Below, piece by piece: positions 1-24,414 of a stretch of DNA of 64,000 bases. Every line of letters begins with the position of its first letter. The stretch's first letter is position 1. A program made the position numbers and the translations under genes. Source of the DNA: Takakia lepidozioides (lineage: Eukaryota > Plantae > Bryophyta). Where the stretch lies: positions 75,020,001 through 75,084,000 of the forward strand of contig CM060732.1 of the NCBI GenBank assembly GCA_030704615.1, read 5' to 3'. A model generated the notes under the pieces. That model made no database searches, was not told where the DNA came from, and saw only the letters and a program-made list of their open reading frames with translations.

Positions 1-156
1 TAGAACTGAGTGTACTTATGATGGGAGGATAGGTTGTTGTGGGGTGGAGTCCCCATAGCTTGGGGTGCCCCTGGCTCGACTTCTGTTTTAAAGAGTGATG
101 ATGAGATGGATTTCATGTTTCTTGTGTTAAGAGTGTGTACTTAGCAATCCTTATCA
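1..156 (+). repeat. 3' part of the 5' LTR of element 1
   Basis: 1-136 is identical to 11376-11511. Both copies then end in ...CTTATCA (156 and 11529). Confidence 0.9.
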
Positions 157-170
157 CTCGAGAGAGATGA
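157..170 (+). promoter_or_regulatory. Putative self-priming primer-binding site
   Basis: CTCGAGAGAGATGA directly follows the LTR-terminal CA and is the exact reverse complement of TCATCTCTCTCGAG at 11330-11343 inside the 3' LTR. No TGG-initiated tRNA PBS is present here. Confidence 0.7.
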
Positions 171-2235
171 CTCTATCTAGTTTTCTAGTGCTAAGCTAGA
201 TATGATGTTTTTCTTAGCACTATTATAATATAACTTGGTAATCTATGAGTCCAAGAGATATGCAGATCCCCACATTCTTCTATTTTCTCTGTGGGCTCTG
301 GCACTGTTTGGGAAGTCGGGTCTTTTCGTCTATCCAAGGCTCTCAACCACAAGTATGCGTCTCATTCAAGCTATGCTAGGGACTCAATCTTGGAGCAAAC
401 AGCCGCTGCCGTGTTTTGAGGCTGTGAGCAAATCAGTTTGTAGTTTGCTGCGACGTCTTCAGAAGGGCCTGCGTCAGGTTGTACTTGTGTGGGGAATCTT
501 GATCAATCTGTTTTGAGGTCCGTGGAGCAGCCCTAAGCAGTGGCAACAGGAGAGTTTTTGGCTGTTACATCCGTCCGCGGTGAGGAGATGGGGACGATGT
601 AGAAGATTTTGTTGCATTGAGGAGAATGGCGTAGCCAGACTGAATGAAGCAGAGGAAGCGACGTGGAGCAAGAGACCAAGGAGCTGAGAATGCCCTATGA
701 AGAGAATCCAATACCATTATGTTCTGCAGCTGGGACAAGACGTCATAGCAAGGCCAAATTACAACATTGCAGCAATGGAGATGATGAACGTGAAACCCTA
801 CAGATCTGTGAAAAGGAGAGATTTGGACGTCTTGCTAGCGATATCAGACAGGCTGGCCACTGGTGCTACATAGATGTCGTGTCAGCATAAGAAGTCACCT
901 CTGGCTGCTAAGAAGAACCTTGTCAGGCTGCATGAAAGAGTTGCAGAGACGGAAGTTGAGATGTCTGTATGGAGTTGCAACAGGACAATGAAGGCAACCA
1001 TAAGTTTGACACCCTCTTTAGGCCTGGGAGGAAGGGAGCACTCAACATGGAGCTGTTGGTGTCACCCAGGATGCCCGAAATTGGTTCAATACAAGGGTGG
1101 TCTCATATGGGAGAAGCATCACTGGCTGGAAATGAACTCAGTGAGCTTTATGCCAAGCCTGCAGTTGTAGATGTTGAACGAATCCAAGCTGCAAATGGTG
1201 TTGAAGAGATAGCTGTATTCCAGTCTGAGGAAGGACTGAAGGAGGCGAGAGCAGACGATTATCTTCCTAGACAACCCATTTTGAACTAACCAACTCTGAT
1301 CTCAAATCACTAACTAAACCTAACTTCAGCAGCTCTCGAGCAAAGTCTCTGGAGTGGAAGTACAGGTGGTGCTTGCCCTGCGAGGGACTGGAGCCCGCCA
1401 GAAAGCCCAATTTGGACAGAGACAAGTAGGAGACTCCCGCTGCAACCTGGGCACTCTCCGATTGCTCCATCTACACATCTCTCATTCCATTTCTTCAGCA
1501 GCATCAACCTCACTGTTGTCGCCCAACTGCACCGACCATGAACTCTTTACAGGGAGTTTATGGTAAAAGGCTGATTGCTCCTACCAAGCAGGTGCCACTA
1601 TAATTGCTTGCATAATCTACTCTCCCGAGGCAAGCGACGCACCTTACTTGCTGCAAACCTTCACTACAGAAATGCAAGCGTCCATCCCTTTTCTGGAGTG
1701 AGCCGCTGGAGAGTGAAACAGTAGCCCTGACGCCAGAGGCATGGCAGACCCGGGGTGCAGGACGAGCAGCAGCTGCCAAGCGTGTACCTGCGAAGGAGGA
1801 TCTCAGCACAACAACCTCAGTTGGTAGACTGCAAATCCACCATTTCGGGCACTCGCAGGGCACGGTATTTTGACCTTGATGGGAACCTGCAGGGAATCGC
1901 AAAAACGTGGGAACAGTTTTTAATGGCGAGAACATTTTTGTGTTAAAAAAAAAACAAAAACAAAAACAAAACAAAAAAACCTTTTGATCTAATTTAAATT
2001 ATTTAGAGCCTAGTTGGTCATATCTTTGTCAAATGAGCTCCGTTTGACTCAGTTTTTGAGGGGATAGCTGCAGAAAGGGGATATCTACCTAGCTAGACTT
2101 GGTTTTTGTTTTTGGGACTCTGCTAAAAATCTATGGAATTTTTAGATTGTGAGTGTGCCGTGAAAGAGCCACAATTCTGTTTCTAGAACCTGTTCTGGTC
2201 TATATGAGAGACAAATCTGTGGATGTCATCCTTGT

Positions 2236-2985
2236 ATGGCTGGGGGAAATGAGGACGTAATTGAAGGGCAGGTCTCTTCTCTTAGCCTGTGCACACAAGG
2301 GGACAAGATTTATGTTTCCCAAGGAACTCAGACTGATTTGAGTGGAGAACAGTTGGACGAGTTGATTGCATACTGGGAGTCAGGCATTAGCAGTAGACAA
2401 CAGACTGCTGTAGTTGGCGTTGAGGGCCTCAATATCGCTTTGGACAGTCAGAACTTTGTTGGAGCCAGCATTTCTGCAGCTGTAGGTGAAATACCAAAGT
2501 GGGTGAAAGCTAGGCTTGGAACACAGTCAAAGACACCCCCGGGTACCAAGGTGTTCAGCCAGAAGGCCATGGTGTACTGGAGCAGAGGAGCAGGAGCTAC
2601 ACAAGTTTGTGCAATCAGACATGGTTGCAGCCGGATACGCTCTGCACAAGGCAACCACGAGCGGGGGTTCATTAGCAATGACAAGTTTGTTTTGCCTGAA
2701 GGAGATGCAGTCATTCGCAATGAGGACACCCGCAACCGTCTCAAAGCTTTCGAGTTGAGAGACTATCAGACCCTACCTTTGTTTTCTCTAGTGTTCAGTG
2801 AGCGGGAGATAGGGGAGTATTGCTTTGTCTCTATATGGCAGAAAGATGAGGAGGGTTGGTTAGAGCGAGCTACTGTAGCTTGGGACAAGGTTAGTGGCAG
2901 GTTTCTGGACATAGATATACCTCCTACACCTTACCATCATGCAGAGCGAGGCACTTTGAGAGAAGTCTGGCACTTGATAGCATAG
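2236..2985 (+). CDS. Accessory pre-gag ORF0 of element 1, unknown function (249 aa, intact)
   Basis: ATG-started, uninterrupted ORF. Its C-terminal ~120 aa align by eye with the pre-gag ORF at 24415-25482. Confidence 0.7.
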   Translation: MAGGNEDVIEGQVSSLSLCTQGDKIYVSQGTQTDLSGEQLDELIAYWESGISSRQQTAVVGVEGLNIALDSQNFVGASISAAVGEIPKWVKARLGTQSKTPPGTKVFSQKAMVYWSRGAGATQVCAIRHGCSRIRSAQGNHERGFISNDKFVLPEGDAVIRNEDTRNRLKAFELRDYQTLPLFSLVFSEREIGEYCFVSIWQKDEEGWLERATVAWDKVSGRFLDIDIPPTPYHHAERGTLREVWHLIA

Positions 2986-3506
2986 ATCAGGATTAGATCT
3001 TGCTTGGGCGGGCTTCTATTCTTCCCCTCCATCTCTGTACTATTTTCATTACCTTGTACTCGTAATTGCCAAAGCCTCTCTTGGTGGAGGCCAGTCAGTC
3101 CGGGGTTTTGGGCTGGGCTATTCTGCAGGATCAGCATTGCAGCTGGATTTTGGTGTGGGGGTGTTGATGTTTTGATTTCTTGTGTTTGGACCCCCCCCCA
3201 ACACCTGCATGCTTGACTGTGCGCCATGTTGGTTTTGTGTGGGCGCTTGCTTTCATAGAGATTAGGCCGGATTTGATCATCGGTCAATCCTAGAGTATGT
3301 TGTCGGTGGTGAGGCTGGAGTGATGACCAGCAAGACCACCAGTGTTTCTTCTATGGTGAGGCTGGGTTGATGACCAGCCAACCATAGGAGTTCTTGCGGT
3401 GGATGCAGGTGCAGGTGCCCTGAGCCATTGGAATATGACCCTTAAACTGCAACAGGTGCTCACCCGTGTCACTATTAGAATCAGTACTAGAGCCCTATAG
3501 TGTCAC

Positions 3507-5108
3507 GTGGGGGAGGTGCACATTGTGAGTGTCATCACGGAGTTACCCAAGGGTTTTGAGAGGAGTACGGCTACAGGCAGTAACAGTGAGAGTGGGTTCA
3601 CGAGACGAGGTATTCGGTTCAAACCACCTTCACCTCCACCCTCAACTAGTGCAGAGTCAGACACAGACTCGGAGGCTTCATCAACAAGTGTGCAGTTTCA
3701 TTCGCCATTGTTGTGGGATGACATGGAGGAGATGTATGGAGCTACCAAGGGGCCTCGTAGGTACTCTGGAGCTGTGGGCACAATCGATTTGGATGACTTT
3801 ATCCAGGAGTTCGACAGCTGGTATGATTTGCAGCAGATGCGCAATCCACAGCTATTCACCCCATTCATGGCGTGGAAGGGACTGTTCCAGCATTTGGAAG
3901 GCCCACCTATGGACGATTACCACGAGTTCAGGCGAGGACATGAAGCAGAGATTGAGGAGTGGAGGATGTATTGGTCACCTGACTATGTCTCCATTACTCG
4001 AGGCACGACGCGACCAGTAGCTGCATCAGTACCAATATCTCCCACTGCCAGCACTAGTAGTGGAGCAAGTAGTGCCGGTACTTCTGCAGGTGGTACCAGT
4101 TCAAAAGATGCTACTACTCCTCCTGCCACGACTACAACACATGTGCCTAGATTCAACCCGGTGGTGGAGTTCTTCCAGGAGTTGCGGAGGAACTACCAAG
4201 GTGTACGGATAGAGAAGCTACGAAGTTTTTAAGACTTCCAGCGCAAACCCAGTGAGAGCCTGCGAGAGGCGTACACTCGTATGAGACGCTTGATAAGTGT
4301 GACCCAAGGGGTTACTGAAGCTTAGGCAATCCAGTTTTGGTATGGAATTCTGGACAAGGAGTTCAAGAGAAGGGTGCGAGATGTAACCCTGTTACAAGCA
4401 GCCCAACCCACATTAGCAGATGTGTTTCTGCTGGCTGAGCGGATTGAGCTCAACATGGTGGAGGAGCAAGTTGTTACCATTGGATTTGGCAAGGACATGC
4501 CTGCACGAGGCGCAGCTGCCAACCCACAGGCACAAGGGACTGCCCAACAGCGTGGTCAGGGGGGCAAGGTTTCCCAACCCAAGTTCCATGGAGCTTACAG
4601 GGGACCTCAGGTGCAGAGGCCCGTGGCATCTTTTGCAAGCCAACAGCAACCAGGGGTGATATGTTGGACATGTGGAGGACCCCATATCAAGAGAGATTGC
4701 CCAGAGAGTGGCAGAAGGCCGACACAAGCACAGCCTGCACAGTTGCAGTGTGGGCATTGTGGCAAGTATGGGCATGGAGATGCCCAGTGTTATGACTTGC
4801 ATCCTGAGTTGCGCCCAGGCCAGTTCCAAGGGAACAATGGTGGCCGGGGGCGAGGTGGACCAGCCCAAAGAGGACGAGGTGGTCGGGCACGAGGTGCAGG
4901 CCAAGGGCAAGCTCAACATGGCCAAGGACGCGGTGGTCAGGGTGTTGACCAAGGCATGGCCAACCGGCTTCAGCAGCTAGAGCAGAGGCTCGCTGCAATG
5001 GCTATAGCTCAGGCGGTACCGGCTCCCAGGCAGGATGGTCCACCTCCTGCTCCTGAGGGAGGAGATATAGGAGGATGGGATTCATGTGCGGAGCAGCACT
5101 ACCACTAG
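3507..5108 (+). pseudogene. gag: gag of element 1 with two zinc knuckles
   Basis: One frame broken by stops at 4230 (TAA) and 4323 (TAG). Knuckles CWTCGGPHIKRDC and CGHCGKYGHGDAQC, followed by an RGG-rich tail. True start uncertain. Confidence 0.85.
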
Positions 5109-5511
5109 TGCAGGTGGAGTCTGCTGCAGCCGTGACTCGAGGAGCAGCACGAGTTCCTGAGCCACGAAGTGCAGAGGTGGAATTGGATCCACAGCGTGGG
5201 GAGGCAAGCCATCAGGCGAGGCTTCCTCAGTCATTCACATTGGCGGAGACTGTGTCGACGCCATCCATGGCACCTAGTTCTCGCCCGACTGTTACCGAGG
5301 CGGAGGTTACTATGCCATTGGGGAGAGCTACACGTGCAGCACTGACACCTGCTACCAAGGCTAGTGCAGCCGGTGTGTTGTTGGGGGCAGCCACCTCTGT
5401 GTGTCAAGCCCCACTATTCTCGGCAACCATGATTGCGACGCCGGGAATAAGACCAGCTGTAGTGTTCAGACTAGCAGCAACACTCTGTGAGAGTGGGGAT
5501 GTCACTTCATC

Positions 5512-6222
5512 TTGGAAGGTGTAGTGGCAGAGGGATCCTCGGATTTGAGGGTCAAGACTGCCACGGCTGCGCCCTGGCAAGCTGCAGCTACCAGATTGAC
5601 GGAACTGCCAGCTAGGCCAGCCTTTGAGCGCGCCATGGTGACACCTGGAACTGTCTTGTTAGACAACCATGAGGGCATTTTCTCTTTGAGTGGACCGGCA
5701 GGCAAGAAGTACCGGCCACTGCGGGTCTTGTTGGACTCGGGAGCCCAGCCACTGATGTTGGGCAGAGCTGCTATTGCAGGTTTGGGCCTCATGGAGGCGG
5801 ATATGGAGCCTTGTCCTTTCCAGATACAGACATCTCTGGGAGGATCAGAGCAGGCTCGGGGCATGACACGGCATCAGTTGGCCATTAGACTGCAGCCGGA
5901 TCATCCTGTAGATGGCTCAGTGATGCGGGTCAAGGCCATTGTGACAGACGCGGTCTCTTACGATGTCCTCGTTGGTGGGGCAATGTTATATCCCATGGGC
6001 TTCACCCTGGACTTTTGGGAGGAGTCAGCATCCTACAGGCCTGGATGGCAATCAGGGGATGGTCGTCGTGCACAGCTCCCTGTGACATTCATTGGGGATA
6101 TTGCGGCTGCCCAACGGGGCAAGATGCCAACACTAGCCGCCTTTACAGCTGCAGTTAGTTGGCCTAGAGAGTTGTTGGAAGGCAATGCCCATGCAGAGGA
6201 TGTACCACCTCTAGTAGAGTAG
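5512..6222 (+). pseudogene. Aspartic protease region of pol
   Basis: VLLDSGA active-site motif (DSG at 5734-5742) and downstream YDVLVG motif. Confidence 0.85.
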
Positions 6223-6435
6223 GATGACATGCATGGTATGGCGGAGTTGCCTGCCATGGTTGCTCACACTCCATTGTGGGGTACGAGCAAGGATTTGCAG
6301 CAGGTTGCTGATCGATGGGTGCAACAAGCTTGGGTAGAGGCTTTTGTACCGTCAGGAGAGGAGGAGAGTGCGGGTATTGCACCAGGACCACCTCAGTTGT
6401 CACCATTGGATACCACACCTATTGTGTGGTAGTAT

Positions 6436-7410
6436 ATGGATGAAGGCATTTGCCTTCTGGACTTGTTTGGCGGGATCAGCACCGGATTGGCTGCTGTGCT
6501 ACAGGCAGGTGCGCGGGTAAGGCGTTATCTGTATGTGGAGAGGGATGAGACTGCACGACGCGTCTCACTGCGCCATGTGGCTCAGTTAGTACAGCAGTAC
6601 CCTGTTTTGTTGCCAGTGTCTGCAGTTCGTGAATACCAACAAGCCTTGCCAGCAGACATTTCGTTGTTGGGGGCGCAGGATTTGGAGCAGGTTGGCTCCA
6701 TTGATCTGGTAGTGGCAGGTTGGCCCTGCCAAGGGCATTCATCAGCCGGGCATGGCAATGGATTGCGAGACTCAAGGATAGGTCTGTTTTGGGAGATGAT
6801 GCGGGTTTTGCGCCACTTACAGCTTCATCAAGCTGTATCTCCAGCATACATCTTGGAGAATGTGCCACTGATGGGTGATTCTCAGGCCAGGGTGATGGCC
6901 AGTGTGCATCAAGTCCGGTCGTGGCTTGGGTCAGCAGTGTTGCTGGATGCAGCTGCAGTGGGGTCACGGGCTCATTGTCCACGGCTTTGGTGGACTAACT
7001 TGATGCCACCCGCACTGCTCAAGCGTGCATTTGATGGGGTGCAGCGGCCAACACACCTCACCGTGGATGACATTTTGGACACAGGGAGGCAGTCTCAACG
7101 TGTGAGACACGATGACCGTTCGCCTTTGGCAGTGGTCAACAGGGTGGGTCAACCACGAGCAGCATTACCTACACTGCTCAGCTTCCCAGGATCCCATGCT
7201 TTTCGGGATGGTGGACTTGGCTTCTTGTGGGATAGCCAGTTGCAACAGTTAGTGGAGCCTAATGCCGACGAGCGAGAGCGGGCTATGGGATTTTCCACTG
7301 GGACCACGGCGGTGCCTTCTCTTTCTGAGGCATCACGTCGTCAGGTGTTGGGGCAAGCAATGGATCTCAATTGCTTGACCTGGATTATCAGCTTGGCTAT
7401 GGCTGAGCAA
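6436..7410 (+). CDS. DNMT3-like C5 cytosine DNA methyltransferase domain embedded in pol
   Basis: Motifs in canonical order: I LLDLFGGISTG, II YVERD, III ADI, IV DLVVAGWPCQGHS (PC at 6724-6729), VI YILENV (ENV at 6856-6864), VIII SRAHCPRLWWTNL, IX ERERAMGF, X RRQVLGQAM. Same reading frame as PR upstream and RT downstream. Confidence 0.93.
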
Positions 7411-7779
7411 CGTAGAGTGCGGAGTGCACTTCCCTTGACGGTCTCTCTGCCTACCGAGACGGTACAGGCAGCGAGTGGGGGCGAGCCGGTGAGGACCACG
7501 GGGTGTAGACATCCATGGCACACGTGGGAGGTGCTCGAGGTTCAGAGGGAGTTGGCAGCCAAGGCAGCTGTGATGGACGAGGTTGGGGATTCTTCTCGGG
7601 ATGAAGAGGTTCTCAATGATGAGATGATAGGGCAGGATGAGGCCTTGTCATTGACTGAGCAGGAAGGGAGTACTGCTCAAGAGGTTGCAGCATAGCAACC
7701 ACGGGACGCGTCCTCTACCCCTAAGCCCACTGGACTTAAGGTTGCAGTTACGGAGGACAATTGGGAGCCTGACATTGGA

Positions 7780-9190
7780 CCCATTGTCACCGGAGGAGAG
7801 AGACGACGTATACGGCGGTTCCTGAGGGCTTACAGGAATTGCTTTGCCTTCAGTTTGAAGGACTTGGGAGCACTGAAGGGTCAAGAGATCCGTATTGAGT
7901 TGGCCACTGACACGCCAATCTTTCGGAGACCCTATAGATACAGTGACATGGAGAGGTCTTTGATTCAGATGAGGACTCAAGATCTCTGGGAGGCAGGTTT
8001 GGTAGAGCTTTCTGGTGGAGAGTATGCTTCAGCCACAGTGATGCCAGCCAAGAAGGATGTCTATGGCAATTGGACGGAGAGACGTATGTGCGGTGATTAC
8101 CGGCCTGTAAATCGTCAGACCAAGTCCGATAGGTATGCCATGCCGACACAGAAGAGATCTTTGATGCCATTGGGCATTCCAAGGTCTTTAGCACGTTGGA
8201 TTTACGATCCGGATATCACCAGTTGCCGATCAAGGAGGCGGATAAGCAAAAGACGGCATTCTGGGGGATCAATGAGTACGGGAAGGATTGCCTATACCAG
8301 TGGCGGTTCTTACCATTTGGGCTTAAAAACGCTCCCGCTGAGTTTCAAAGAGTCATGGACAGGATTCTAGCAGGGGTGGAGTTTGCTCGGTGCTACATAG
8401 ATGACATCATCATCTTTAGTGCTACGGTGGAGGAGCATGAGAGACACCTTCAGGGGGTATTTGAGCGCTTGAGGACGCACGGATTGAAGTTACATCCGGG
8501 CAAGTGCAAGTTTTTCCACAACCAGATTGAGTATCTGGGTCACATGATATATCCTGGAGGATTGGGGGTACAGCAGACTAAGGTAGAGTCCATTGCACAG
8601 GTTCCACGCCCCACGGATGTGAGCCGAGTTCGAGCTTTCATGGGGTTAGCAAACTATTACAGACGGTTTGTTAAGGGATTTAGTGCCATTGCAAAGGCTC
8701 TAACCAAACTGACCAAGGTGGACCAGGAGTGGCAGTGGGAAGATGAGCAAGAACAAGCTTTTCAAGAGCTCAAGGCGAGGTTGACCTCGGCGCCCATCTT
8801 GAGACGACCTATCAGGGGGCGTCCTTTTCAGCTGCATACAGATTGGAGCATGCTGGGGCTTGGAGCGGTGCTCACACAGGTGGATGATGAGGGAAGAGAG
8901 TTCGTAGTGGCTTATGCTAGCCGCTCAAACAATGCTGCAGAGTCTAAGTATAGCTCATATGAGGGAGAATGCTTAGCTGCAGTGTGGGCCGTGGCACATT
9001 TCAGGTGCTATCTATACGGCAATCTCTTCACCCTTGTCACGGATCACCAACCACTCAAGTGGTTGATGGAGTCAGACAAGCTTACGGGGAAGCTTACACG
9101 GTAGGCACTCATCCTTCAAGAGTATGACTTTCAGGTGGTGCATCGACCGGGTTTGGTCAATCGCAATGCAGATGGGTTGAGTCGCAATCC
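7780..9190 (+). pseudogene. Reverse transcriptase and RNase H of element 1
   Basis: RRPYR, RMCGDYRPVN, DLRSGYHQ, LPFGLKNAP, YIDD; RNase H LHTDWS, YEGECLA, VTDH. Frameshift near 8150 and stop at 9102. Confidence 0.95.
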
Positions 9191-9537
9191 ATGCACGAGC
9201 CAGCAGGATGACACTGGAGCTCGGTGGCATGGTGAGACGGACGAGGAGATGGTGCCCGGATGGCATGCATCTGCATTTCTGTGTATCTTGGCAGCGGAAA
9301 GCTAGGTTGGACCTGCAACAGGGATGACTGTAGATCAAAGTGTCTGAGGACCCTGAGGCCAGCAATGAGCAAGGTGGTGCCAAAGATATACATGAGGATT
9401 CAGTTGTGTTGGACTACCTCCGCACTGGAGACACTGCAGCCACTATGACTGCCAAGGAGAGGGATCGGATCCTACAACGAGCCAAGAGGTTCAAGTGGGA
9501 GGGGACACACCTGCTCCGAGTGTGGGAGGATGGTTGA

Positions 9538-10680
9538 GTGAGGATTGTGCCTCACCCAACACAGCGGGCATGGTTAGTGCGGCATGCCCATGAGGAGTTG
9601 GGGCATTTTGGGGTGCGACGCACTCATAGTCTACTGCAGGGGCAGTATTGGTGGCGTGGTATGCACACAGAGGTGCAACAATTTGTGGCTAGGTGCATGG
9701 TGTGTGACAGGGTGCGTGCTTCATTCAATGCCCCTACTCCACAATTGCACCCTCTTCCGATCATGGGATTGGGCTACAGGTGGAGTCTTGACTTCGCAGG
9801 GCCGTTGCCACTGACCATGCGCCACAACAAGTACGTGTTGGTGATGGTGGAGCACTTCTCCAAGTGGATTGAATTGGTTCAATTGCCTGATAAGGCTAGT
9901 GAGCGAGCTGCGTATGCATTCTTGGATTGTGTGCTTAGCCGATTCGGTGCTCCAGCTGAGGTACTCACAGACCAAGGGAGAGAGTTCTTGGGGGAGTTTC
10001 AGGCTTTGTGTGACAAGGCCTTGATAGACCACCGCACCACTTCTCGGGATCATCCTGAGGCCGATGGCTTGGCAGAGAGAGTTGTTCAGATAGTAAAGAG
10101 GGGTTTGCGCAAGTATGGCTTGAAGAAAGGACACCTAGGAGATTGGGACCTTCAGTTACCCTGGTTAGCCATGGGCTACAGGTTCAGCAAACAAGCATCA
10201 CTTGCCTCCTTCTCACCATACTTTCTTCTCTTTGGCCGAGAGCCGGATTTGCCTACATCCATTTGCAGAGAAGCTGCTACAGTTCTTAACCTTAACGATC
10301 CGGATGTATGGGCACGTGCATGTGAGCAGCGTGCAAAGTTGTTCAAGAAAGTCATGCCAATGGCTTTTAAGAACCTTGCCATCGCACAACACCATGATAC
10401 GTTGAGGTATGCTACCATACGTGGTGGGGGCTATCATCATGGGGTTCGGAGATTCAACCCTGGTGACTATGTTTACCTGTAGCAAACTACTCCTACGACC
10501 TTGGATGTGACTGCAGGACGTGTTATTTTGAGGGTTCGAGAGGTCTTGCCCTCAGGCGTCTTGGTCTTGGAGGGTCGGGATGGCATAACTTGGAAGGACC
10601 ATGTGCGTAATTGTGCGCCATGTCACCTTCCGAATGTCGATGGCAGGATTGACCCAAACCTGACAGTGGTATCTGCAGGT
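9538..10680 (+). pseudogene. DDE integrase of element 1
   Basis: HHCC zinc site (AHEELGH...CMVC) and DDE triad SLDFAG / LTDQG / GLAER. Stops at 9535 and 10480. Confidence 0.93.
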
Positions 10681-10686
10681 TTGAGG

Positions 10687-10821
10687 TGCATGTTGTGTGG
10701 GTCTGCTAGAGGGGCAGCCACCATGCTGGTGTGTGATCGATGCTCTAGAGGTTGGCATATGGGATGCTTGACTCCACCTCTTGAGATGGTTCCGGATGGG
10801 GATTGGTTATGTCCACATTGC
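10687..10821 (+). CDS. PHD finger at the integrase C-terminus
   Basis: CMLC...CDRC...WHMGC...VPDGDWLCPHC is a C4HC3 PHD pattern, in frame with the integrase. Confidence 0.92.
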
Positions 10822-11090
10822 ATTGGATAGTGGGAGTGGATACAACCATGGAGGGCTAACAAGAAACGCAAAGCCAAGCTACTAAGGGACCTTGAACACA
10901 CGAGGTCTTGACTCAAGTTCATAGATTGCAAGACGTCGACTAACGATGGGGCTACTCTTGTACCCGGCCTCTTGGTCTATAGAGTTTGAGTACAATAGGG
11001 ACAGTGATAGAGGACTTCGTACGGCTGTGGCTATTACATCTTGTAGCTATCTAGAGGTAGAGAGACCTATCCACCAGCTAGGGGGGCGAT

Positions 11091-11529
11091 TGTGGCAGAC
11101 TACTTTATTGTGCATATATGTGTGGTGTGGTTTGGACAGCGATGTAGTTGTGTAGCGATATGTATGCGCACGACAGCTGTCAAGTTAAATAAGCACAGTG
11201 TGAAAACAACTAGAATAAAGCTAGTTATTTGTACTTAACACTTGGATTTAGGTCAAGTGTTAAATCAGGTGTCAAGTTTAGTTTGACACTTGAACCGCCT
11301 TATCTTCACGAGAGCGGCAGTCGCGTAGCTCATCTCTCTCGAGTTGAGCCTGCGCAACCGAGCTCCTTCATCGTCTAGAACTGAGTGTACTTATGATGGG
11401 AGGATAGGTTGTTGTGGGGTGGAGTCCCCATAGCTTGGGGTGCCCCTGGCTCGACTTCTGTTTTAAAGAGTGATGATGAGATGGATTTCATGTTTCTTGT
11501 GTTAAGAGTGTTCTTAGCTTTTCTTATCA
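11091..11529 (+). repeat. 3' LTR of element 1
   Basis: Begins TG directly after the PPT, ends TTATCA, and matches bases 1-156. Confidence 0.8.
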
Positions 11530-11616
11530 TTGTGGCAGACCACTTTATTGTGCATATATGTGTGGTGTGGTTTGGACAGCGATGTAGTTGTGTAGCGATA
11601 TGTATGCGCACGACAG
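11529..11616 (+). repeat. Second copy of the LTR-start segment (11089-11176)
   Basis: 88-bp direct repeat ATTGTGGCAGAC...GCACGACAG with one mismatch, followed by TGGGTCCACA. Confidence 0.9.
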
Positions 11617-13316
11617 TGGGTCCACACTATTGTAGAATTTGCTTGTTGGTTTGAGTTGCAATCAAACCAAATTTGCGTTGCAAACATTCATGTTCATTTA
11701 TTATTTATTTGGGAGAAGGTGATGGAAGGGCCGAAATATATTAGTAAAGCGAGAAAAAAATAACCTCGAAGTACAAACCATGAAGGATGAAAAAGGGGAC
11801 ACCCCCCGGTATTTACTTGATATGTCGATAGTACGATTACTCATATGAGTAAAGGTCGAGAGCAATTAATTTGACAAAATGACATAAACCATCCGAAATA
11901 CCAATACAACGTCGGAGACCTTTCAATACCTAGTTCTATTATACTAAGCAATTCTTTCAAAGGTACTAGGATTCAATCATTGCCGCCTGCCCATGATGAT
12001 TATGCCCGCAGTGTCTTTTTAAGGCAAAACAGTTTTTTTTTTTTTCCTTTTATTTTACAGTTTGATGTTTGAGTATATTAGTGGTTTGGATGGAAAAGTT
12101 TAAACCGGATCCAAATATAAGGCAAATTAGGTTCTTAGGAACCTGGTTGAAAATACCCTTGTTGAGAAGTGACCGGCCTTGAAATCAATACCCAGCCAAC
12201 ACTACAATGCGGGAAAGATTGATGTGTTCCCCTTAGACACAGTGAGGGACAAAAACATAAGCATATTCTACGAAAAATATTCTTTATCATTGAAGATTGA
12301 GAAGGGATCGCATAGAATAGACATACAAGGATGTATGACAGCTTCAGGTGAACCTCAGAACCTAGTGTAGAAAAACCTTGGTATCAGGTCATCCAACCAC
12401 AGGGTTAGCATAGCTCATTATCCAATTGATCATATTACATCATTAGAGAATTCAAAGTAATCCGTGGTGCACTCCAGGGGCATTGTTCAATAGCCAAACA
12501 TAAGACAGAGGTCGGCTTGCCATGTGAAGACACAGGTTCCATGTATCAGAAAAGGGAAGTGGAACAACCTTGGTCGAGCCAGCCAAATTTTTGATCTTTA
12601 AGATCCATTGATTGTCGAGGAGAAACTCAATTCAACCCTGGAGACTTCATCCAGCTGAGTTTATTGAAGCATGTTGTATGAACACCTGGGACTTGAAAAC
12701 AACAGTCATGAAAGTTATTTGCAAAAATAGCAAATGGAAGATACAGAGCAACTGTGGGTAATGAAGTTCGTAAAATAGAGCTACTCCAACAATTCATTTT
12801 CTCACAACTGGCCATTAAACTCCAGGGAGGTCAACACAAGCAAGGCTTTGAGAAGAAAGCAAATGAAGTTTTCAAGAATTGGAGAGTGAAAAAAAAAAGC
12901 GAATCCGGGATAAGACAGTGGGGCAAACCTCGCATGATCACATTTTCTATCCTGCTTTGTGGACCAAAACAAGAAGGTCGACCTCAACTTCATTTGACAG
13001 GGCCAGTCGGACTACTGGAGCGAGCCTCCTGCTATGGAGTGACCCCTGGTTTACACTCCTGGCACCCCCCCTTCCTATCCCCACTTTATTGATCCCTTGC
13101 AAATGTGGGGAAGTGTCTAATCAAAAGGCCGGGTCGAGAGAACTCCACTGCGCCCAAATGGTGATGGGACAATGGATTTGCGGATTACAGCTCCATATCC
13201 TCCACGTCTAGCAAGGGAAACCGCAGAATTGATGCATGCCTGATAATTGCTCTCCAGAAACATGCATCGACGAGAAATTCTTTCACTGACTCTGCTAGAT
13301 CTACATAATGGCATCT

Positions 13317-13668: not shown

Positions 13669-16060
13669 GGGTTAGTTGATAGGGTCTCTTAGAAGCTGAC
13701 ACTGTCAGTAGAACTCTTAGTAGTATTCTAAGTTTCCTTGAGTCAATATGGCCCATGGGGAGAGCAGCATGTCTGAGAGCTCCAAACTGGGAGGACAGTC
13801 CAATTATAGCACGTGGAAATTCCGTGTATCCAGTTTGCTACAGAGAGATGAGCTCATAGATGTAGTTGAGCCAAATGCCGATGGGATCTTTATGCCGATT
13901 GAGGAAGAATTCCAGGCTGACCAGGATCGGAGGAAGAAGAAGCGATTATTAGCCTATTCGTGAAAGATGAAATCGTGTCGCATATTGCTGGGATCACTGA
14001 TCCAGCGCAGATGTGGCAAGCTTTGAAGGACCTGTTCGAACAGCGAAGTAGTGTGCGACGTTTGTTACTCAAGACCAAGCTCACAAATCTTCGATTGGAG
14101 GAGGGAGGTTCAGTTGCCAATTACTTCAAGCAGCTGAAGGACTAATCAACCAGCTAGCTAACATTGGTGAGGTGGTACGAGAGGATGAACTCTTTGAGCA
14201 AATTCTTGTTACACTTCCCAAGAGCTATGAATCACTTGCCAACACGCTGATCTACCGTGTTGAACTTCCCACTCTTAGCGAGCTAACTGGCATTTTACTA
14301 CACGATGAGGCTAAGAAGGAAATCCGAGGGAAGAAAACAGAGGACGAGGCTCTGTTCATCAAATCCAAATTCAACAAGGCCAAGGTCTATGACAAGAATC
14401 GTAAGGGTGGTGGAGCAAAACGGGAGGGAAGCTGCAATTTTTGTGGCAATCCAAATCACTGGATGCGCACATGTGTTGAACTTTCAAATGAAATCAAACG
14501 CCGAGCAATAGAGCGTGAGCGTAAGGTGAATAGTGTTAATCTTGTGGAGGAAAGGAGCGATGAAGAAATCGACAATTTCCATGAATGCAACGATGCACCA
14601 AGAGAACTAGCTACAGACATCTTGGAACTGAATTTGGCTGAATACGACAAATCCAACTAGTACGTGGATAGCGGCGCTACCAAGCATGTCACTGGCAATG
14701 ATAATTTGCTTAGTGATGTCAAGAAAGGAGATGAAAATATCAAGGTCAAAACCGCTGGAGGAAACTCTCACGATGTTGCTGGGGTGGGCAACATTACTCT
14801 CTCTCAAAAATACTGCAATAAAAAAAGAAGTTTTGTACGTTCGGGGTGTATCAAAGAATTTATTGTCTGTCATTATTTTAGCAGATAAGGGATTCCAACT
14901 TCTTTTCAACGATCAGCATGTCTATCTCTTGAATGCTTCGTTCAAAGTTCTAACCAAAGGGACTCGAGATCAATCAAACGGTCTGTACAAACTGACTGTG
15001 TCTAGGGAATTCTTCTTGGGATCAGTGACTAACACAATCAATCTCAGTAGAATCTGACATCTTAGGTTTGGGCATTTAAATCACAAAAGCTTACATCTGA
15101 TGCATGAAAAGGGTCTCGTCACCAGTCTACCAAAGATTTCTCCTGCTGACTCAGCATGTCAGGCTTGTGCACTAGGTAAGCAAAGTTGTCAGAAAGCTCC
15201 CAGGAAGAGTTTATACCATAAAGTCCAACCTTTTGAACTGATCCATACAGATTTGTGTGGACTATTTTTTGTCAAATCTTTGTGTGGGGCTTACTACATT
15301 TTGACCTTTATCGATGACTACAGTCGCTTTGGCTAAGTCTACTTTCTTCGGAAGAAAAGTGAGACACTCACTCATTTCCAGCATTTTCATGCGAAGGTCT
15401 TGAGACAATTTAACATGTCAATCAAAGTCTTACGATCAGATAAAGGAGGGGAATACAGTTCTCTCTTATTCTCTAGTTTTTGCAAAGAACACGGCACTTA
15501 GAGGCAGTTTACGCAAACTAACACACCGCATCAGAACGGTGTAGCCGAGCGTAGAAACAAAACCTTGTTAGAAAAGGCAAGAAGTCTGGCCTTCGGTGCT
15601 AATTTCCCAGCTGCTCTTTGGGCCGAGGCCATCAACACTGCAAATTATCTGACAAACATATCTCCTACCAGGGCAAATGATGATATCACTCCCTATCAAA
15701 AATTATACGGACAGGTCCCTGATGTCAAACATCTTAGAGTCATTGGTTGTGAATGTTTTGTTCACGTTAACACTCAGAAGTCCAACTGGTCACCAAAGTC
15801 CAGGAGCTGTGCACTGCCAGCATACGATACATCCACGAAGGGCTATAGATGTTTTTGTCCAGAGTTGAACAAAGTTACAGAGTCTAAAGATGTCATTTTT
15901 TCTGAAGATCACATGAGCTTCATGCCGGTTACAACCAGAACAACGATTGAGGACCTTGCAACAACTGTATTCTGCCATCTACCGCAGACTCCAATACTAC
16001 CAGGACCAACCAGCGGAACAACAAGTTGACGTACCCTATTTCGACCAAGGCGCTGAAACT

Positions 16061-16674: not shown

Positions 16675-18861
16675 TCACCCCCTCCTCTAGCGCCGAGTTC
16701 CTCGAGGAGCGGTAAAATCTTGGACTTGCTTAGAGTTGGAGAAAATCCAAAATCCGGCGAATGGTACTTGCCAAGTATTCGGCTCTTCGTTCTTGACTCA
16801 AATGATTTATATAGTGGGTGATTCTTACCTCAACAAAAGAGCACAAACAAGTTCTATTTTTCAGATAAAGCTGCAGCAGTATATAGGTCATTGCAACCAT
16901 CGATGGTGTCCAACACCTTGAACTTAGGACCACGCAGTGATTTGAGTATTCTGATTTTCGAAGCTGTCTTCAAACAAAATTTCGTTGCCTTCTGGGTCCG
17001 AAGCCTCAACCTCCAATAGAATTATCAGACTTCGAGTAGGCTCTACTTGCCGTCGTACGGGGTCCAGACGAGGAAGTACGCGTCGCATTGGTGGCCCATC
17101 ATCTCGAGAGCGTCGGCGTGATGTTGAAGGTCGTGAGAGTCGGAACGGCTGATCTGGTAGTTGGGTAAGTGACAACTCCAATGTATCTGGTTCCTGTGAC
17201 TCCATGCTGCCAATACAAGATGCAAGAGTGCTGGAAGTGTAGCTATATATACTGATGTGTGGTGCTCATCCCTCCTTAGAGTGCATCAGGTACATTGAAT
17301 GTGGAGTCTTCACATTGAAGCTAACTTGGCTGACATCATTGTTGTGATGTCTTATTGACGTGTAGCCCGGGGCTTGGCTGGATATCATTGATAAAATTCT
17401 TGGACTTTGTCAGATGCATTGGCGAGGTTGGATGAAGATTCCCACGTTCGTTCGCTGATGTCGTAGCCTTTCCAATGTACGAAATACTCAAGACGTTTAT
17501 ACTTGATGCGAGAGTCTAGGACTTCGTCGACTTCATACTTAATTTCCTGATTGAATTCGATTGGTGGAGGTGGTACGAAGACTCTCCCTGGAATATTCGA
17601 TGGATGATACAACTTCAATAATGAAATATGAAAGACTGGATGGATGCGCATACTTCGTGGGAGGTCAAGCCGAAAACTGACCTGATTTATTTGTCGAATA
17701 ATTTTGAATGGTCCCAGACGTTGATAATCCAACTTCCTTGATGGACGCAAGGTTTGTATGTCCCGTCGAAGAAGCCACACACGATCTCCGACCTTGAACT
17801 GAGGTTGGAATAATAAAGTCCATAGACACGGACGAGCATGGACCCTTGGGGGAATGGGTAATAGTTGAAGAAGGTCGTAAGGTCGATGTCGTGGTCCCTT
17901 CGCTCTAGCACACGTGTCGCAAGATTTTATAAATTTTTTCACGAGTTTCCACATCTGCGGCCACTAATAGTCCCTGGATATCAATTCCATTGTTTTGTTC
18001 AAGCCGAAATGTCCTACAGCCGGAAGATCATGACATGTTTGAAGAATTCGAAGTCGTGTAGGTCCTGGAGGTACATAGAGAAGTCCCTTGAAATAAAGTA
18101 AGTCATCTTTGAATTCGAAGTCGTTTGTAACATGTGGGTTGTCTCGAGGTCAATTTAGTTAACTTCGTAGTGTCGTAGCAAATTGGTCGCTTTTCAGTGC
18201 TTCCTGAATCTCCTTTATGATCTCTGCATCGTCATAGGTAGACATGGATAACATATTCAATTGGAGATTTGCTGGTTTCAAGATGATGGATTTTTGTTGG
18301 TCGAAAGCTGTCTCCCCCTTTTTCGGCGCAAGATATGATCGTCGAGAAAGAGCATCGGGTTTCCCTTAAAGATGTCTGGGGCGATAGGTAATAACAAAAT
18401 CAAACCTTGCTAGTGACATACCCCATCTGGCTTGACGTCGATTCAAAACACGAGCACTCATAAAATATTCGAGGTTTTTGTGATCGCTGTAGACAGTGAT
18501 ATGATGTTTAGTTCCTTCCAGTAGATGACGCCACTCCTCAAAAGCATCGATGATCGCTAGAAGTTCTTTGTCATGGATTTCATAATTGATCTCTGTAGCG
18601 AAAAATTTGCGAGAACGAAAACCAACAGGGTAAAGTCTGTACCGTATTGAGACTGTATAGCACCAAGTGCAAAGTCCGATACATCTGCTTCCAAGAAGAA
18701 TGGTTTAGATGGGTCTATATGTACTAGTATTGGAGCCGTTGTAAATGTCTGCTTCAGCCTTTCAAATGTCTGGTCAGCCTTCTCGTCCCATACAAATTTG
18801 TCCTTCCCTGTGAGTCGTGTCAATGGTGCAGCAATTTTGGAGTAGTCCTTGATGAAGATTC
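16061..18861 (-). mobile_element. Chromovirus-type Ty3/Gypsy remnant (RT end/RNase H, IN with core deleted, chromodomain, PPT, 3' LTR)
   Basis: [32 protein letters not shown]; CDTC, LGPFKI, IHPVFHISLL; chromodomain YEVDEVLD...YFVHWKGYDISERTWE (~17420-17540). PPT at ~16678-16689. Confidence 0.9.
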
Positions 18862-19301
18862 TGTTATGTATGGGGAAGTCGGTGCGCGGGGATGTCGGGA
18901 CCTGCATTTTCGGTTCTATAATTCTGGTTCGGTGTAGGTTCGGGCAAGGTTCAGAATACTCCGCTCATTCTCTCCGCGCACAGCTCACCGCTCATGCATT
19001 TTCAATCCCCGACTACCTGGAGAGAATGAAGACTCTGATCAGGAAGCTACCTCAAGCACCAGGTGATGCAAAAATCATGGTTCATCAACGGACTTCGTCC
19101 TGAATATGTAACCATGGTTACAGTCATGCCTAACAACACTTTGGCTCAAGCAGTAGGAATTGCAAAGAAATTAGAATTGGGATTTCATCAGAGCAGAAGT
19201 AAAGATTCCAAGGATCCCTTGGAAGAAGAAGACTCTGATGATGAAGAAAAACCCAAGCAAAAGAAGAAAGAAGTGATTGACAAAACCACTTTGGATCAGA
19301 A
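18862..19301 (+). mobile_element. LTR-retroelement fragment: TG-started GC-rich segment plus gag piece
   Basis: Chromovirus pol is cut abruptly at TGTTATG (18862). Gag-like text DYLERMKTL and WFINGLRPEY...TLAQAV follows. Confidence 0.55.
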
Positions 19302-21430: not shown

Positions 21431-21799
21431 GATTTCCTCTTGCACTATAGCCATCTTTTTCACACTCTCTCTATAGGCAAATTGCTTGACAGGAGGTCCC
21501 TCAGTCTCAATGTCATGCTGTAGGATTCTTCCCAAGGTCAGAAGCTCCAAGACTGAACACATCCAGGTTGTGAGCTATCAAGGTCTCAACTTGTTTCTTT
21601 TGGGCTTCCTCAAGTAAGGGGTTAAGTTTGATCTCACCAAGGACTTTGCCAAGGGCTTCTATTTCTTGAGCATTGAGTCTATTCTTGAAGCTCATGGCAG
21701 GAGAAGAGTGGCTGGAAAAAGCAGTGACCAGATCTGATTGATCATGGACAATGCCTAAGGCTTCAAAATCAAAAGCAGGCTGGACTTCACCAATCTCTT

Positions 21800-22080
21800 C
21801 TAAGGGACGGGAAGAAATTCTAGCAAGCACTTGCCCCTTCTTGATGGTCATAGGAAACCTTTCAGGATTGGCTATAAGAAGCTTGACTTCATCTTTGTAA
21901 CCTCTATCAAGAACCCCAGTAGCAACAAGACAATGCTTTAAGGTAGTAAGCCTCCTCCATCCATCAACCTCAAGGTAGTGTCCATTAGGACAAAGATAGG
22001 CCAATTGGGTCTTGACCACTCTCTGGCACATAGATGGAATAGTGACATCACATGGAGCTCTAATCAAAGTACTGTTCTTT
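21800..22080 (-). CDS. dUTPase-like domain within pol of element 2
   Basis: DVTIP..RVVKTQL..CPNGHYLEV..VATGVLDRGYKDEVKLLIAN..TIKKGQVLARI follows the trimeric dUTPase pattern. Motif III is recognisable; the other motifs are degenerate. Confidence 0.78.
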
Positions 22081-22988
22081 TGCACCACAATGGGAGCACC
22101 AGACTTTTGACCAAAGCTAGGTACATGCCACTCATACATCAAGGCAAGATCTGGCTTGTATTTGTAAAACTCCAGCCAAGACATGTTGTGGTGGGTCCTT
22201 TGCCTTACCTCCCTTACCATGGCTTGAACTTGGGAAAGGTTGGCAGTAGCAGTGCCTACATGCATCTTGACAGTCTTGAGAGGCACTATGACTTCATGTC
22301 CTTCTCCATTGGGAAATCTTAGGGAGTTGTCACCAAGGTTGATGGTAGCTTGAGCCCCTGTCATCCAATCCAATCCCAACAAGAACTGGTCTCCTACTGT
22401 AACTATGCAAGTAATCAAGACCTCTTTCTTGTGAATTCTAATAGGGACAGTGACCAGCCCCAAGGGCTCATACCTTGACCCATCTGCAATGATGACCTCC
22501 ATGCCTTGTGCAGGGGTCAACTTGAGGCCCAAGACTCGACTCGCTACCTGCAAAGGGATGGTAGACATGGTTCATCCAGTATCTACAACATATGGAAAAC
22601 TCAAATGATGCATATGATATTGTGTGATCAAGGGACTTATGTCAGGCACTTGACATTTCTTGGCTAGTTCACAATGCAAAGCCTTAAAGTTAGTTGACAA
22701 CATGACCCTCTTCTTACTTGCATCAACAGGGGTGCTCCTTCCCATGACCTCTTGTCCCCTGCCCAAGAGATCTTTTTAGTTTAAATGTGTGTAGCCAGCC
22801 TGGTTGGAAGATTCTACCTGAGCATAGCCCTCACAGTCAGGATGTCATACCTTAGTGTAATGCTCATCACTGCCACAAATATAACAAGGAGCAAACTTCC
22901 TCTCATAAGTAGCCCCTGTTTGTGTCTTACCTCTGAACCCTCCACCTTTACCTCTCTGCTGATCTCTGGGTTTGTATCCAGCTCTTTG

Positions 22989-24395: not shown

Positions 24396-24414
24396 TAGTT
24401 AGGAATCACCACCT

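Follow-up and report, generated by a model that had tools for sequence, protein, structure and literature searches.

This stretch of Takakia lepidozioides DNA (64,000 nt, here called the window) raises the question of whether a DNMT3-type cytosine methyltransferase (MTase) lying between the protease (PR) and reverse transcriptase (RT) of a retrotransposon belongs to that element, and if so how it is expressed and what it might do. A first-pass annotation had placed an LTR retrotransposon at 5512–10830, with the MTase in a single Pol polyprotein. The element is larger than this: it begins upstream of window position 1, ends at 11615, and lacks an ordinary pair of LTRs. It is a Ty3/gypsy retrotransposon copy in decay, apparently belonging to the Gypsy-DNMT3 lineage, with the domain order Gag-PR-DNMT3-RT-RNaseH-IN-PHD, and its family is very abundant.

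The element and its methyltransferase

Features other than stop codons and repeats are as follows:

401–2000 (borders approximate), no strand: stretch rare among copies by run X1 depth, likely an insertion in the window copy
2236–2985, + strand: ORF0, an extra gene upstream of gag (249 aa, counted from the ATG), whose protein family, defined by sequence relatives, has no name
3723–5590, + strand: gag, two CCHC-type knuckles, with premature stops and two frameshifts in the window copy (Marchantia P0124)
5620–6102, + strand: aspartyl protease (LLDSGA; Pfam E 0.006; 41–60% identity to relatives)
6433–7410, + strand: DNMT3-type C5 cytosine MTase domain, unpermuted, PC and ENV intact (DNA_methylase E 1.5e-11)
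7753–8700, + strand: RT (YIDD; RVT_1 E 4.4e-31), frameshift near 8150–8190 in the window copy
8730–9200, + strand: RNase H (RT_RNaseH E 3.3e-31), stop at 9102 in the window copy
9538–10479, + strand: DDE integrase with H2C2 zinc finger (rve E 3.6e-15), flanked by stops at 9535 and 10480 in the window copy
10687–10827, + strand: PHD finger at the integrase C-terminus (Pfam PHD E 2.4e-11)

The four profiles proposed for checking (DNA_methylase, RVT_1, rve, PHD) thus all found their matches. The order Gag-PR-RT-RH-IN with a DDE integrase is that of Ty3/gypsy; the DIRS hallmark, a tyrosine recombinase in place of a DDE integrase, is missing, with no recombinase family on ten scanned ORFs. At the integrase C-terminus, the chromodomain of Chromovirus and Tcn1 is replaced by the PHD finger, detected in 26 of 80 loci, whose best solved relatives are CHD4, PHF12, KDM5B/5A, ATXR5, and PHF21A; we assign it to the class that recognises unmodified H3 tails. 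Gag is 47–53% identical to Marchantia P0124, in frames 3, 2, and then 1. ORF0 has 24 relatives at E ≤ 0.001 and a run X1 depth of 3e5–4e5, with no Pfam, PDB, or fold match; a search for its relatives in 84 fetched loci matched none. Decay of the window copy shows in its four frameshifts, in seven or more additional stops, and in a Cys in MTase motif VIII; the summed contig depth of run X1 is 212–1997 over 401–2000, against 3e5–1.3e6 over 2001–11200.

The MTase motifs are in unpermuted order: I at 6454, IV (PC) at 6703, VI (ENV) at 6850, VIII at 6967, IX at 7270, and X at 7336. In a profile search DNMT3A (3e-22) and DNMT3B ranked above DRM (1e-9 to 1e-11) and HhaI/HaeIII (1e-6), and the predicted structure (pLDDT 85.5) matched DNMT3A (6f57) with a TM score of 0.70, bearing out the DNMT3-like assignment. 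Motif VIII is present as first read, but the window copy has Cys (codon 6976) for the first Arg of most relatives and of DNMT3A. Lying between PR and RT, unpermuted and free of introns, this DNMT3-type domain is as expected for Gypsy-DNMT3 elements.

Of 162 metagenome loci, the 80 best served as the sample of relatives (L numbers below); one moss-like family dominates them, and some rows are one and the same insertion. The MTase holds the same position throughout these 80, in agreement with the earlier view that it is neither a nested insertion nor a one-off capture. Midpoint-rooted quick trees of RT and MTase, restricted to MTase-bearing elements, are congruent, with their main clades in common and the Klebsormidium group falling with the PR-MTase-RT elements. 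In 19 of 70 long proteins, which form a sister clade, the MTase is instead placed at Pol level, after RNase H and before integrase. The proposed test for neutral evolution covered 13 pairs, five of them saturated: MTase dN/dS was 0.085–0.194 in five between-lineage pairs, below a Ka/Ks of 0.2 and not neutral, and 0.36–0.57 in three pairs of decayed copies. The catalytic Cys is kept in 66/69 rows and the ENV Glu in 73/79. Judged by these comparisons, the MTase is an old conserved component of the element. Members in Marchantia, Calypogeia, Riccia, and Sphagnum place the family in liverworts and peat mosses, consistent with the land-plant-type host suggested at first. A self-methylation signature was sought through CpG: observed/expected ratios were 0.46–0.52 in the element and 0.31–0.40 in neighbouring host genes, so depletion is not stronger in the element.

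A stop codon between methyltransferase and reverse transcriptase

The +1 frame from 5491 takes in protease, linker, MTase, and the start of RT, interrupted only, as first described, by TAG codons at 6220, 6430, and 7693. These are unlike in kind, however:

6220–6222, + strand: private stop codon, decay (sense codon in 54/54 relatives covering the site)
6430–6432, + strand: private stop codon, decay (sense codon in 65/66 relatives, one gap)
7693–7701, + strand: conserved stop in read-through context, TAG CAA CCA (UAG-CAR-YYA), at the end of ORF1 (Gag-PR-MTase), from the relatives' alignment
7709–7808, + strand (arms about 7709–7722 and 7794–7808): long-range RNA stem predicted downstream of the stop, from pairing and covariation

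At 6430, about 99% of run X1 depth departs from the window. At the third site, 54 of the 58 measurable loci have a stop followed by CAR-YY between MTase and RT, 53 of them in the RT frame, whereas CAR-YY follows 14/1068 other in-frame stops; the stop is at the matching position in 40/40 in-frame rows (of the 58 measurable). Four of the 58 linkers (L062, L070, L072, L073) lack the motif, and in L079 the stop is gone. In the intact L034 and L081, an ORF1 of 1369 and 1348 aa is followed by one stop and then by 1047 aa in frame, and 28 of 70 long database proteins terminate 13–181 aa past a complete MTase. Among 994 host contigs, there were no variants of 7693–7701 at ≥2% depth; as 8 of 121 sites vary at that level, host invariance is unremarkable alone.

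UAG-CAR-YYA is the type I (TMV) read-through signal (PMC3542737), and MuLV gag-pol also uses stop-codon read-through (PMC5009743). Shared with both is a lone in-frame stop with a structural product upstream and the polymerase downstream, and with TMV type I also CAR-YYA; the present switch differs in following protease and MTase, in a Gypsy retrotransposon. The strict signal, UAG/UAA and CAR-YYA between in-frame ORFs, is found in the window and seven relatives (L006, L031, L034, L045, L074, L056, L081), with varying codons (CAA CCA, CAG TTA, CAA TCA, for Pro, Leu, Ser). The largest subfamily (48/54 rows, moss-like) has CAA CCC/CCT/CTC, CAR-YY then C or T, without the strict A at +6. The 3′ stem pairs within its own lineage in seven of nine elements, and its arms co-vary between two lineages; it fails in L031 and L074, an upstream control window folds equally well, and folding z-scores for the whole region do not discriminate.

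On the alignment evidence, the TAG at 7693 is conserved rather than decayed, and its context matches a TMV-type signal; the MTase therefore closes the Gag ORF, with expression of RT-RNaseH-IN-PHD likely to depend on read-through. Shared position and congruent trees uphold the MTase as part of the element, but the conserved stop of leaky type before RT argues against a single Pol polyprotein and puts the MTase writer and the PHD reader on opposite sides.

The same TAG could conceivably be a true end of ORF1, with Pol translated by reinitiation or from an RNA spliced at the TAG as 3′ acceptor. TAG can serve as an acceptor, and TAA replaces it in 13/53 rows dispersed across the tree, a scatter that does not speak against splicing; the moss-like subfamily has TTTGCR before the stop and an in-frame ATG two codons past it, so that reinitiation is possible there; and some Marchantia and Sphagnum gene models continue the MTase into RT (P0128, P0132, P0160). 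These models may, however, reflect predicted introns that skip the stop. The pyrimidine tract before the stop is missing in the window, L006, L031, L034, L045, L056, and L081; the first Met of ORF2 in the window, L034, and L081 is at 85–117, behind a conserved W..GP motif at 23–24; and CAR-YYA is conserved as nucleotides although the amino acid changes. Splicing or reinitiation is accordingly quite improbable. That the MTase is a neutral passenger, acquired by capture or nested insertion, and all three stops decay, is hardly credible: the window copy is dead and dN/dS is raised among decayed copies, but against this stand the constant position in all sampled lineages, the congruent trees, the between-lineage dN/dS (0.09–0.19), the retained Cys and Glu, and the 7693 stop. 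Conserved stop and dN/dS refute the passenger reading for the family.

Split repeats, primer site, and insertion ends

The terminal features are:

1–156, + strand: repeat A1, 3′ part, ending TTATCA (96% identical to 11376–11529); the first ~198 nt are upstream of the window
156–170, + strand: primer-binding site, a 15-nt perfect complement to repeat A at 11330–11344
11080–11088, + strand: polypurine tract (PPT) AGGGGGGCG, directly before repeat B1; the same tract precedes B in relatives
11089–11175, + strand: repeat B1, ending CGACA (99% identical to B2)
11171–11182, + strand: palindrome CGACA-GC-TGTCA where B1 meets A2, an attachment-like internal site conserved in relatives
11178–11529, + strand: repeat A2, starting TGTCA and holding the predicted self-primer 11330–11344, from repeat comparison
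11530–11615, + strand: repeat B2, the right end of the element (CGACA), from repeat comparison

The layout A-coding-B-A-B is found in the window, L047, L069, and L077/L078; A-coding-B is the common form among loci. These are DIRS-like split direct repeats, as in Gypsy-DNMT3 elements, rather than two identical terminal LTRs: B lies upstream of A1 in none of 19 loci with room for it, and the mirror form A-B-A-coding-B, predicted by a plain two-LTR circle, was found in 0/19 loci with enough upstream DNA. Ngaro/PAT are split-direct-repeat elements of the DIRS order. Elements of that order share the A-coding-B-A-B layout, and SymbioDIRS-Dnmt3 also has a DNMT3 in pol, but they integrate by tyrosine recombinase, whereas the window family combines a DDE integrase with TG...CA ends and 4-bp duplications. 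The latter occur at the termini of 7/7 loci with both ends, representing six independent insertions; in the window, the four bases after B2 (GTGG) are the predicted target duplication, the left flank lying outside.

The termini of complete elements are the two halves of the CGACA-GC-TGTCA palindrome. Moss-like copies keep this palindrome, as do L034, L045, and L081, although synonymous sites in these three are saturated relative to the window. The PPT is immediately 5′ of B1 and the primer site immediately 3′ of A1; at the A/B joint, L030/L035 retain 9 nt of primer site, and L069 a PPT remnant plus filler. From the termini and joint remnants, integration likely opens end-joined cDNA at the internal palindrome.

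Pairing of the primer site with repeat A predicts self-priming. The pairs differ yet stay complementary in L047, L081, and L034, a lineage-specific covariation, and own-lineage duplexes of four different sequences range from -18.6 to -27.1 kcal/mol; a strong duplex at the expected place is present in only 8/18 moss-like copies. The self-priming Tf1/sushi and Tcn1 elements treated in the text of PMC6317226 likewise have a primer site complementary to their own repeat and not to a tRNA, but carry chromodomains and ordinary LTR pairs instead of a PHD finger and permuted repeats.

Probable kinship and a proposed cycle

The family appears related to KnitGypsy-Dnmt3, described from Klebsormidium nitens by de Mendoza et al. 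(2018, PMC5890265), a name taken up again in bioRxiv 10.64898/2026.05.21.726589. Each is a Gypsy element whose DNMT3 domain is unpermuted and evolves under purifying selection, in the order PR-MTase-RT-RH-IN; identity to Klebsormidium P0178 is 46% for the MTase, 43–46% for RT, and 57% for RH and IN. The concern that this might simply be the described charophyte lineage is justified for domain order and for the split repeats, given in the Fig. 4c legend of PMC5890265. In Klebsormidium P0178, P0167, and P0169, however, the MTase continues into RT stop-free, and MTase and RT share one uninterrupted ORF in P0178 and P0157/P0261 (P0261 being a single 2240-aa ORF), not in the window clade. Because a conserved in-frame stop splits MTase from RT, the family is a variant rather than a plain member. 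The text of PMC5890265, to which its figures and supplement may add, does not mention PHD, Marchantia, self-priming, 4-bp duplications, an internal palindrome, or land-plant hosts; it reports the Klebsormidium DNMT3 domain as inactive in yeast, a result its authors call inconclusive. New here are the conserved read-through-type stop, the ends with 4-bp duplications that map to the internal palindrome, and the predicted self-priming with covariation.

Intact relatives carry two in-frame ORFs parted by one conserved stop. With read-through, MTase would be made in Gag-like amounts and RT/IN/PHD at a small share of them, and each particle would therefore contain many MTase molecules. As the covariation suggests, the RNA would begin within repeat A, and its 5′ end would pair just after A1 and prime reverse transcription in the manner of Tf1; the positions of the PPT and the primer site point to a linear cDNA with a true LTR of B+A at both ends. 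These ends would be joined, as a circle or by repair after strand transfer, and the integrase would cut CA-GC-TG between B and A and insert the product, in keeping with the observed duplications and termini; A-coding-B forms could come from circles with one LTR, from cutting at two sites, or from subsequent B/B recombination. The integrase PHD finger may steer insertion via unmodified H3 tails. As a whole, this account of a Gag-PR-DNMT3 ORF1, likely read-through to RT-RNaseH-IN-PHD, and a self-primed, end-joined cDNA opened at the palindrome seems to us probable. Its least certain step, for which chances are roughly even, is that packaged MTase methylates the new cDNA, which would enter the genome marked like host DNA.

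The split repeats might also arise by a DIRS/Ngaro-like route, in which RNA runs through B2, the B-A joint splints a circle, and integrase acts on the new joint only. That would account for A-coding-B-A-B without its mirror, and the layout resembles that of split-direct-repeat DIRS elements as presented in the text of PMC5890265; but the PPT and primer site fit an ordinary LTR of B+A, the A/B joint remnants vary by insertion, as newly joined cDNA ends would, and the scan of ten ORFs turned up no tyrosine recombinase, making this route unlikely. It is rather unlikely, though conceivable, that the main targets of the MTase are the host genome or competing elements, or that it shields one of the two identical palindromes and leaves integrase to cut the other, rather than disguising cDNA. 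Enzyme supply at Gag level would far exceed the need of one cDNA, and the palindrome contains CG, with one of two sites used; yet the sister clade makes its MTase at Pol level and P0261 is a single ORF, so no fixed ratio is required.

The fullest form of the proposal, a widespread plant lineage off the canonical LTR route whose leaky stop, of plant-virus type, packs DNMT3 at capsid level and whose copies arrive pre-methylated, falls a little short of an even chance. Foamy virus and HIV-1 integrases also act on internal CA..TG palindromes, cleaving 2-LTR circle junctions, in the text of PMC2884000 as a side activity; the window family would use such cleavage as its normal route, inside the LTR. 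If so, self-priming, cDNA end-joining, and a DDE integrase acting on a palindrome within the LTR would make up its normal path, and methylation may even direct the cut to one palindrome of the two.

The methyltransferase as a family trait

The Takakia element is open in frame +1 from 5491 through a protease (PR), a linker, a 326-aa C5 methyltransferase (MTase; 6433-7410) and the start of the reverse transcriptase (RT), interrupted by TAG codons at 6220, 6430 and 7693 alone. Pfam matches are DNA_methylase, RVT_1, RNase H, rve and PHD, the last confirming the PHD of the first-pass annotation. Its identification of a DNMT3-like enzyme is also borne out: the enzyme is of DNMT3 type with unpermuted motifs, a profile built from 64 relatives ranks DNMT3A (3e-22) above DRM (1e-9 to 1e-11) and HhaI/HaeIII (1e-6), and the structural model (pLDDT 85.5) matches DNMT3A with TM 0.70. 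This copy is dead, with four frameshifts and at least seven further stops; motif VIII of its MTase has Cys in place of the first Arg. An Rfam scan of positions 1-12000 gave no match.

MTase relatives (270 of similar length, 70 longer) include proteins from Marchantia, Calypogeia, Riccia, Sphagnum, and Klebsormidium. The order Gag-PR-MTase-RT-RH-IN-PHD is constant in the best 80 of 162 metagenome loci, as far as contigs extend; the majority of these 80 are one family near a Sphagnum protein, here termed moss-like, and some are one and the same insertion. For 36 hand-picked rows (18 proteins with both domains plus 18 or 17 loci), quick trees, an unfinished IQ-TREE run for the MTase and FastTree for the RT, both without host DNMT3/DRM sequences, have their main clades in common. 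MTase dN/dS was 0.085-0.194 in five between-lineage pairs, with five more saturated; three pairs of decayed copies gave 0.36-0.57. By these sequence comparisons the MTase is a family trait and not a capture, and the earlier view that it is no nested insertion holds. In a second clade (P0159, P0163-P0166, P0170-P0173, P0179, P0182, P0183, and others), the same MTase instead separates RNase H from integrase, and a PHD is again present; this clade is separate in both trees, so the domain either moved or was placed twice.

Copies in the host were visible in contigs from public sequencing runs, 91,425 of which, in the run of the host itself, map to the element; summed contig depth is not copy number, and served only to separate shared from unshared stretches. 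A 5-kb contig from a second organism has 282 differences from the window element across 6137-11095. In viral and genome contig collections the sole true relative is L081, of which 1-9285 is an intact family element; this contig belongs to a MAG labelled Synechococcales, and protein P0021 is labelled Obscuribacterales. Both bacterial labels are likely eukaryotic contamination of bacterial bins. P0124, with 18 member sequences, is Marchantia Mp_4g09160, and ends at the conserved stop region.

A conserved stop codon between methyltransferase and reverse transcriptase

The three TAG codons are not equivalent. The 6220 codon is sense in all 54 relatives compared and the 6430 codon in 65 of 66, whereas a stop occupies the position matching 7693 in 40 of 40 in-frame linkers (58 measurable among 81 sequences). 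A stop followed by CAR-YY occurs in 54 of the 58 measurable linkers, versus 14 of 1068 other in-frame stops. Contexts are TAG CAA CCA in the window and CAG TTA or CAA TCA after the stop in other relatives; the residue encoded after the stop varies while the nucleotides keep CAR-YYA. Two loci are intact: L034 (a 1369-aa ORF, one TAG, then 1047 aa in the same frame) and L081 (1348 aa, one TAG, 1047 aa), with Gag-PR-MTase as ORF1 and RT-RH-IN-PHD as ORF2. By these alignments the TAG at 7693 is a feature of the element, unlike those at 6220 and 6430. The MTase is thus in the PR-RT frame, as first annotated, but the third TAG is the conserved end of ORF1 rather than a mere interruption, and it lies between the MTase and the PHD.

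The context fits UAG-CAR-YYA, the TMV-type read-through signal, which is functional after UAA too (PMC3542737, in the part available); read-through is also described for MuLV and for plant gag-pol cases (PMC5009743, likewise). Against read-through, position +6 is C or T in the moss-like family, in which an ATG also stands two codons past the stop, four linkers lack the CAR-YY motif, and TAA variants are scattered, a distribution by which they were rejected as a replicating subfamily. A stem predicted at about +15 to +115 after the stop pairs within, not between, two lineages (7 of 9 elements); whole-region folding z-scores for this 3' stem did not discriminate. The 130 nt directly before the stop (7563-7692, + strand) have an unusually stable fold (z -3.9). 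No host variant at 7693-7701 reaches 2%, but with just 8 of 121 host sites varying, this invariance reflects sharing and not special constraint.

If the stop is leaky, the MTase would be made at the level of Gag, and RT, integrase, and PHD at a fraction of it, which would put writer (MTase) and reader (PHD) on different products. This stop is absent from the Klebsormidium group and from P0157/P0261, so the switch arose in the window's clade.

Split terminal repeats, priming, and integration

The window element has no LTR pair. Repeat comparison instead gives two split repeats:

1-156 = 11376-11529, + strand, repeat A (A1, A2)
11089-11175 = 11530-11615, + strand, repeat B (B1, B2)

The resulting A-coding-B-A-B layout recurs in L047, L069, and L077/L078, and B-A-B is seen at the 3' end of L021, L022, L070/L073, and L071; ten loci stop at B1, followed by 388-6359 nt of other DNA. 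All seven loci with both ends (six insertions) have a 4-bp duplication, an ACA end, and a TGTCA-type A start, slightly decayed in two. The termini meet internally as the palindrome CGACA-GC-TGTCA (11171-11182), kept in L034, L045, and L081.

The 15 nt that follow A1 are perfectly complementary to 11330-11344 within A. L047, L081, and L034 have differing sequences with the same complementarity, at position 160-175 of A; the predicted energy is -18.6 to -27.1 kcal/mol for own-lineage duplexes and -6.4 to -18.1 for cross pairs, and 8 of 18 moss-like copies retain a strong duplex. This complementarity predicts a primer from the element's own sequence, as known in Tf1/sushi and predicted for Tcn1 (PMC6317226, in the part available).

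With a polypurine tract (PPT) directly 5' of B1 and the primer site directly 3' of A1, reverse transcription should yield a B+A LTR. Integrase then probably opens end-joined cDNA at the internal palindrome; the integrases of foamy virus and HIV-1 reportedly cleave palindromes (PMC2884000, as far as its accessible text goes). The A|B joint is precise in most copies; L030/L035 retain 9 nt of primer site, and L069 a PPT remnant plus filler, as expected if cDNA ends were newly joined. The mirror form of the layout was found in 0 of 19 loci: possibly the left LTR becomes double-stranded first, or methylation shields one palindrome site. The circular assembly of L081 was rejected as evidence of a real circle, collapsed repeats giving an identical result. 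L066 14616-17201 belongs to a more remote Gypsy, at 57% in RNase H and 51% in integrase, which has B-A-B repeats together with the palindrome CATGACA-GT-TGTCATG; going by its sequence, this design of the ends may extend beyond the MTase family.

Possible roles, neighboring features, and significance

In 26 loci and 14 long proteins the integrase terminates in the PHD. Its best solved relatives (CHD4, PHF12, KDM5, ATXR5, PHF21A) are mostly readers of the unmodified H3 tail; it likely targets integration. For the MTase, methylation of cDNA inside the particle is the favored role, though at roughly even odds. Composition does not support it, since element CpG o/e (0.46-0.52) exceeds that of neighboring host genes; CpG/CHG depletion was rejected as a self-methylation mark, host genes being equally depleted. 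Moss-like copies change at rates of 0.156 (CG), 0.182 (CHG), and 0.053 (CHH), and among the 22 private transitions listed for the window copy, 13 are in CHG; this CHG-rich decay is consistent, at the sequence level, with host silencing. Methylation of cDNA by a transposon MTase was proposed in 2018 for DIRS elements (PMC5890265, in the text available).

Other features of the window are:

2236-2985, + strand, ORF0, upstream of gag, an unnamed family with 24 relatives
14052-16026, + strand, decayed copia element
17388-25518, - strand, decayed chromodomain Gypsy element; 21516-22571 matches a dUTPase domain (Pfam 8.5e-9)
28338-39186, + strand, kinase gene; its open exon spans 6.3 kb (2106 aa) and shares 27-29% identity with kinase-domain proteins of Riccia and Physcomitrium
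41413-53125, - strand, intron-rich plastid SecA gene, with transit peptide
62216-62758, - strand, exon that we take to resemble choline monooxygenase

ORF0 relatives reach 44-48% identity and, if whole, are mostly 200-235 aa; ORF0 is common to many host copies and absent from the fetched relatives. Its C-terminal half is predicted to fold confidently; neither Pfam nor PDB sequences matched it, and fold comparison gave no match either (best Z 4.2), which does not demonstrate a new fold. The kinase exon had no seed-plant match among 10; taken with the intron-rich SecA gene, it suggests that the host is probably a land plant outside the seed plants.

The closest described element is KnitGypsy-Dnmt3 (de Mendoza et al., 2018; PMC5890265), likewise a Gypsy with DNMT3, there within the Pol ORF, and with DIRS-like split repeats. 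In the available part of that paper the permuted repeats are noted without explanation, and a yeast assay of Klebsormidium DNMT3 is inconclusive. Earlier descriptions of DNMT-bearing retrotransposons came from algae, with neither an established role nor a tractable host. The available text of PMC12344493 restates that result, and that of a 2026 preprint names streptophyte Gypsy-DNMT3 in one sentence (bioRxiv 10.64898/2026.05.21.726589). The Klebsormidium group, however, has no stop before RT, whereas the window's clade conserves one. In the open-access literature searched, the name Gypsy-Dnmt3 appears in two papers, no retrotransposon paper combined read-through with CARYYA, and among the papers listed on split repeats, circles, PHD, or Marchantia none showed a description of these features; most subscription papers and Repbase fell outside this scope. 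That the family is simply the described charophyte lineage is thus true of the Gypsy-DNMT3 combination, known from an alga, but not of the conserved, putatively leaky stop, the internal palindrome with permuted ends, or the predicted self-priming, which are new as far as these searches reach.

If it holds, the mechanism proposed for the permuted repeats would be one of the rare instances in which a DDE integrase uses joined cDNA ends as a matter of routine. The repeat layout may also explain why a search for LTR pairs would overlook the family. In bryophyte annotations, DNMT3-like gene models that lack introns may be Gypsy-DNMT3 elements. The conserved stop predicts the dose and location of the MTase, and because the family occurs in Marchantia, the role of a transposon methyltransferase becomes testable in a model plant.
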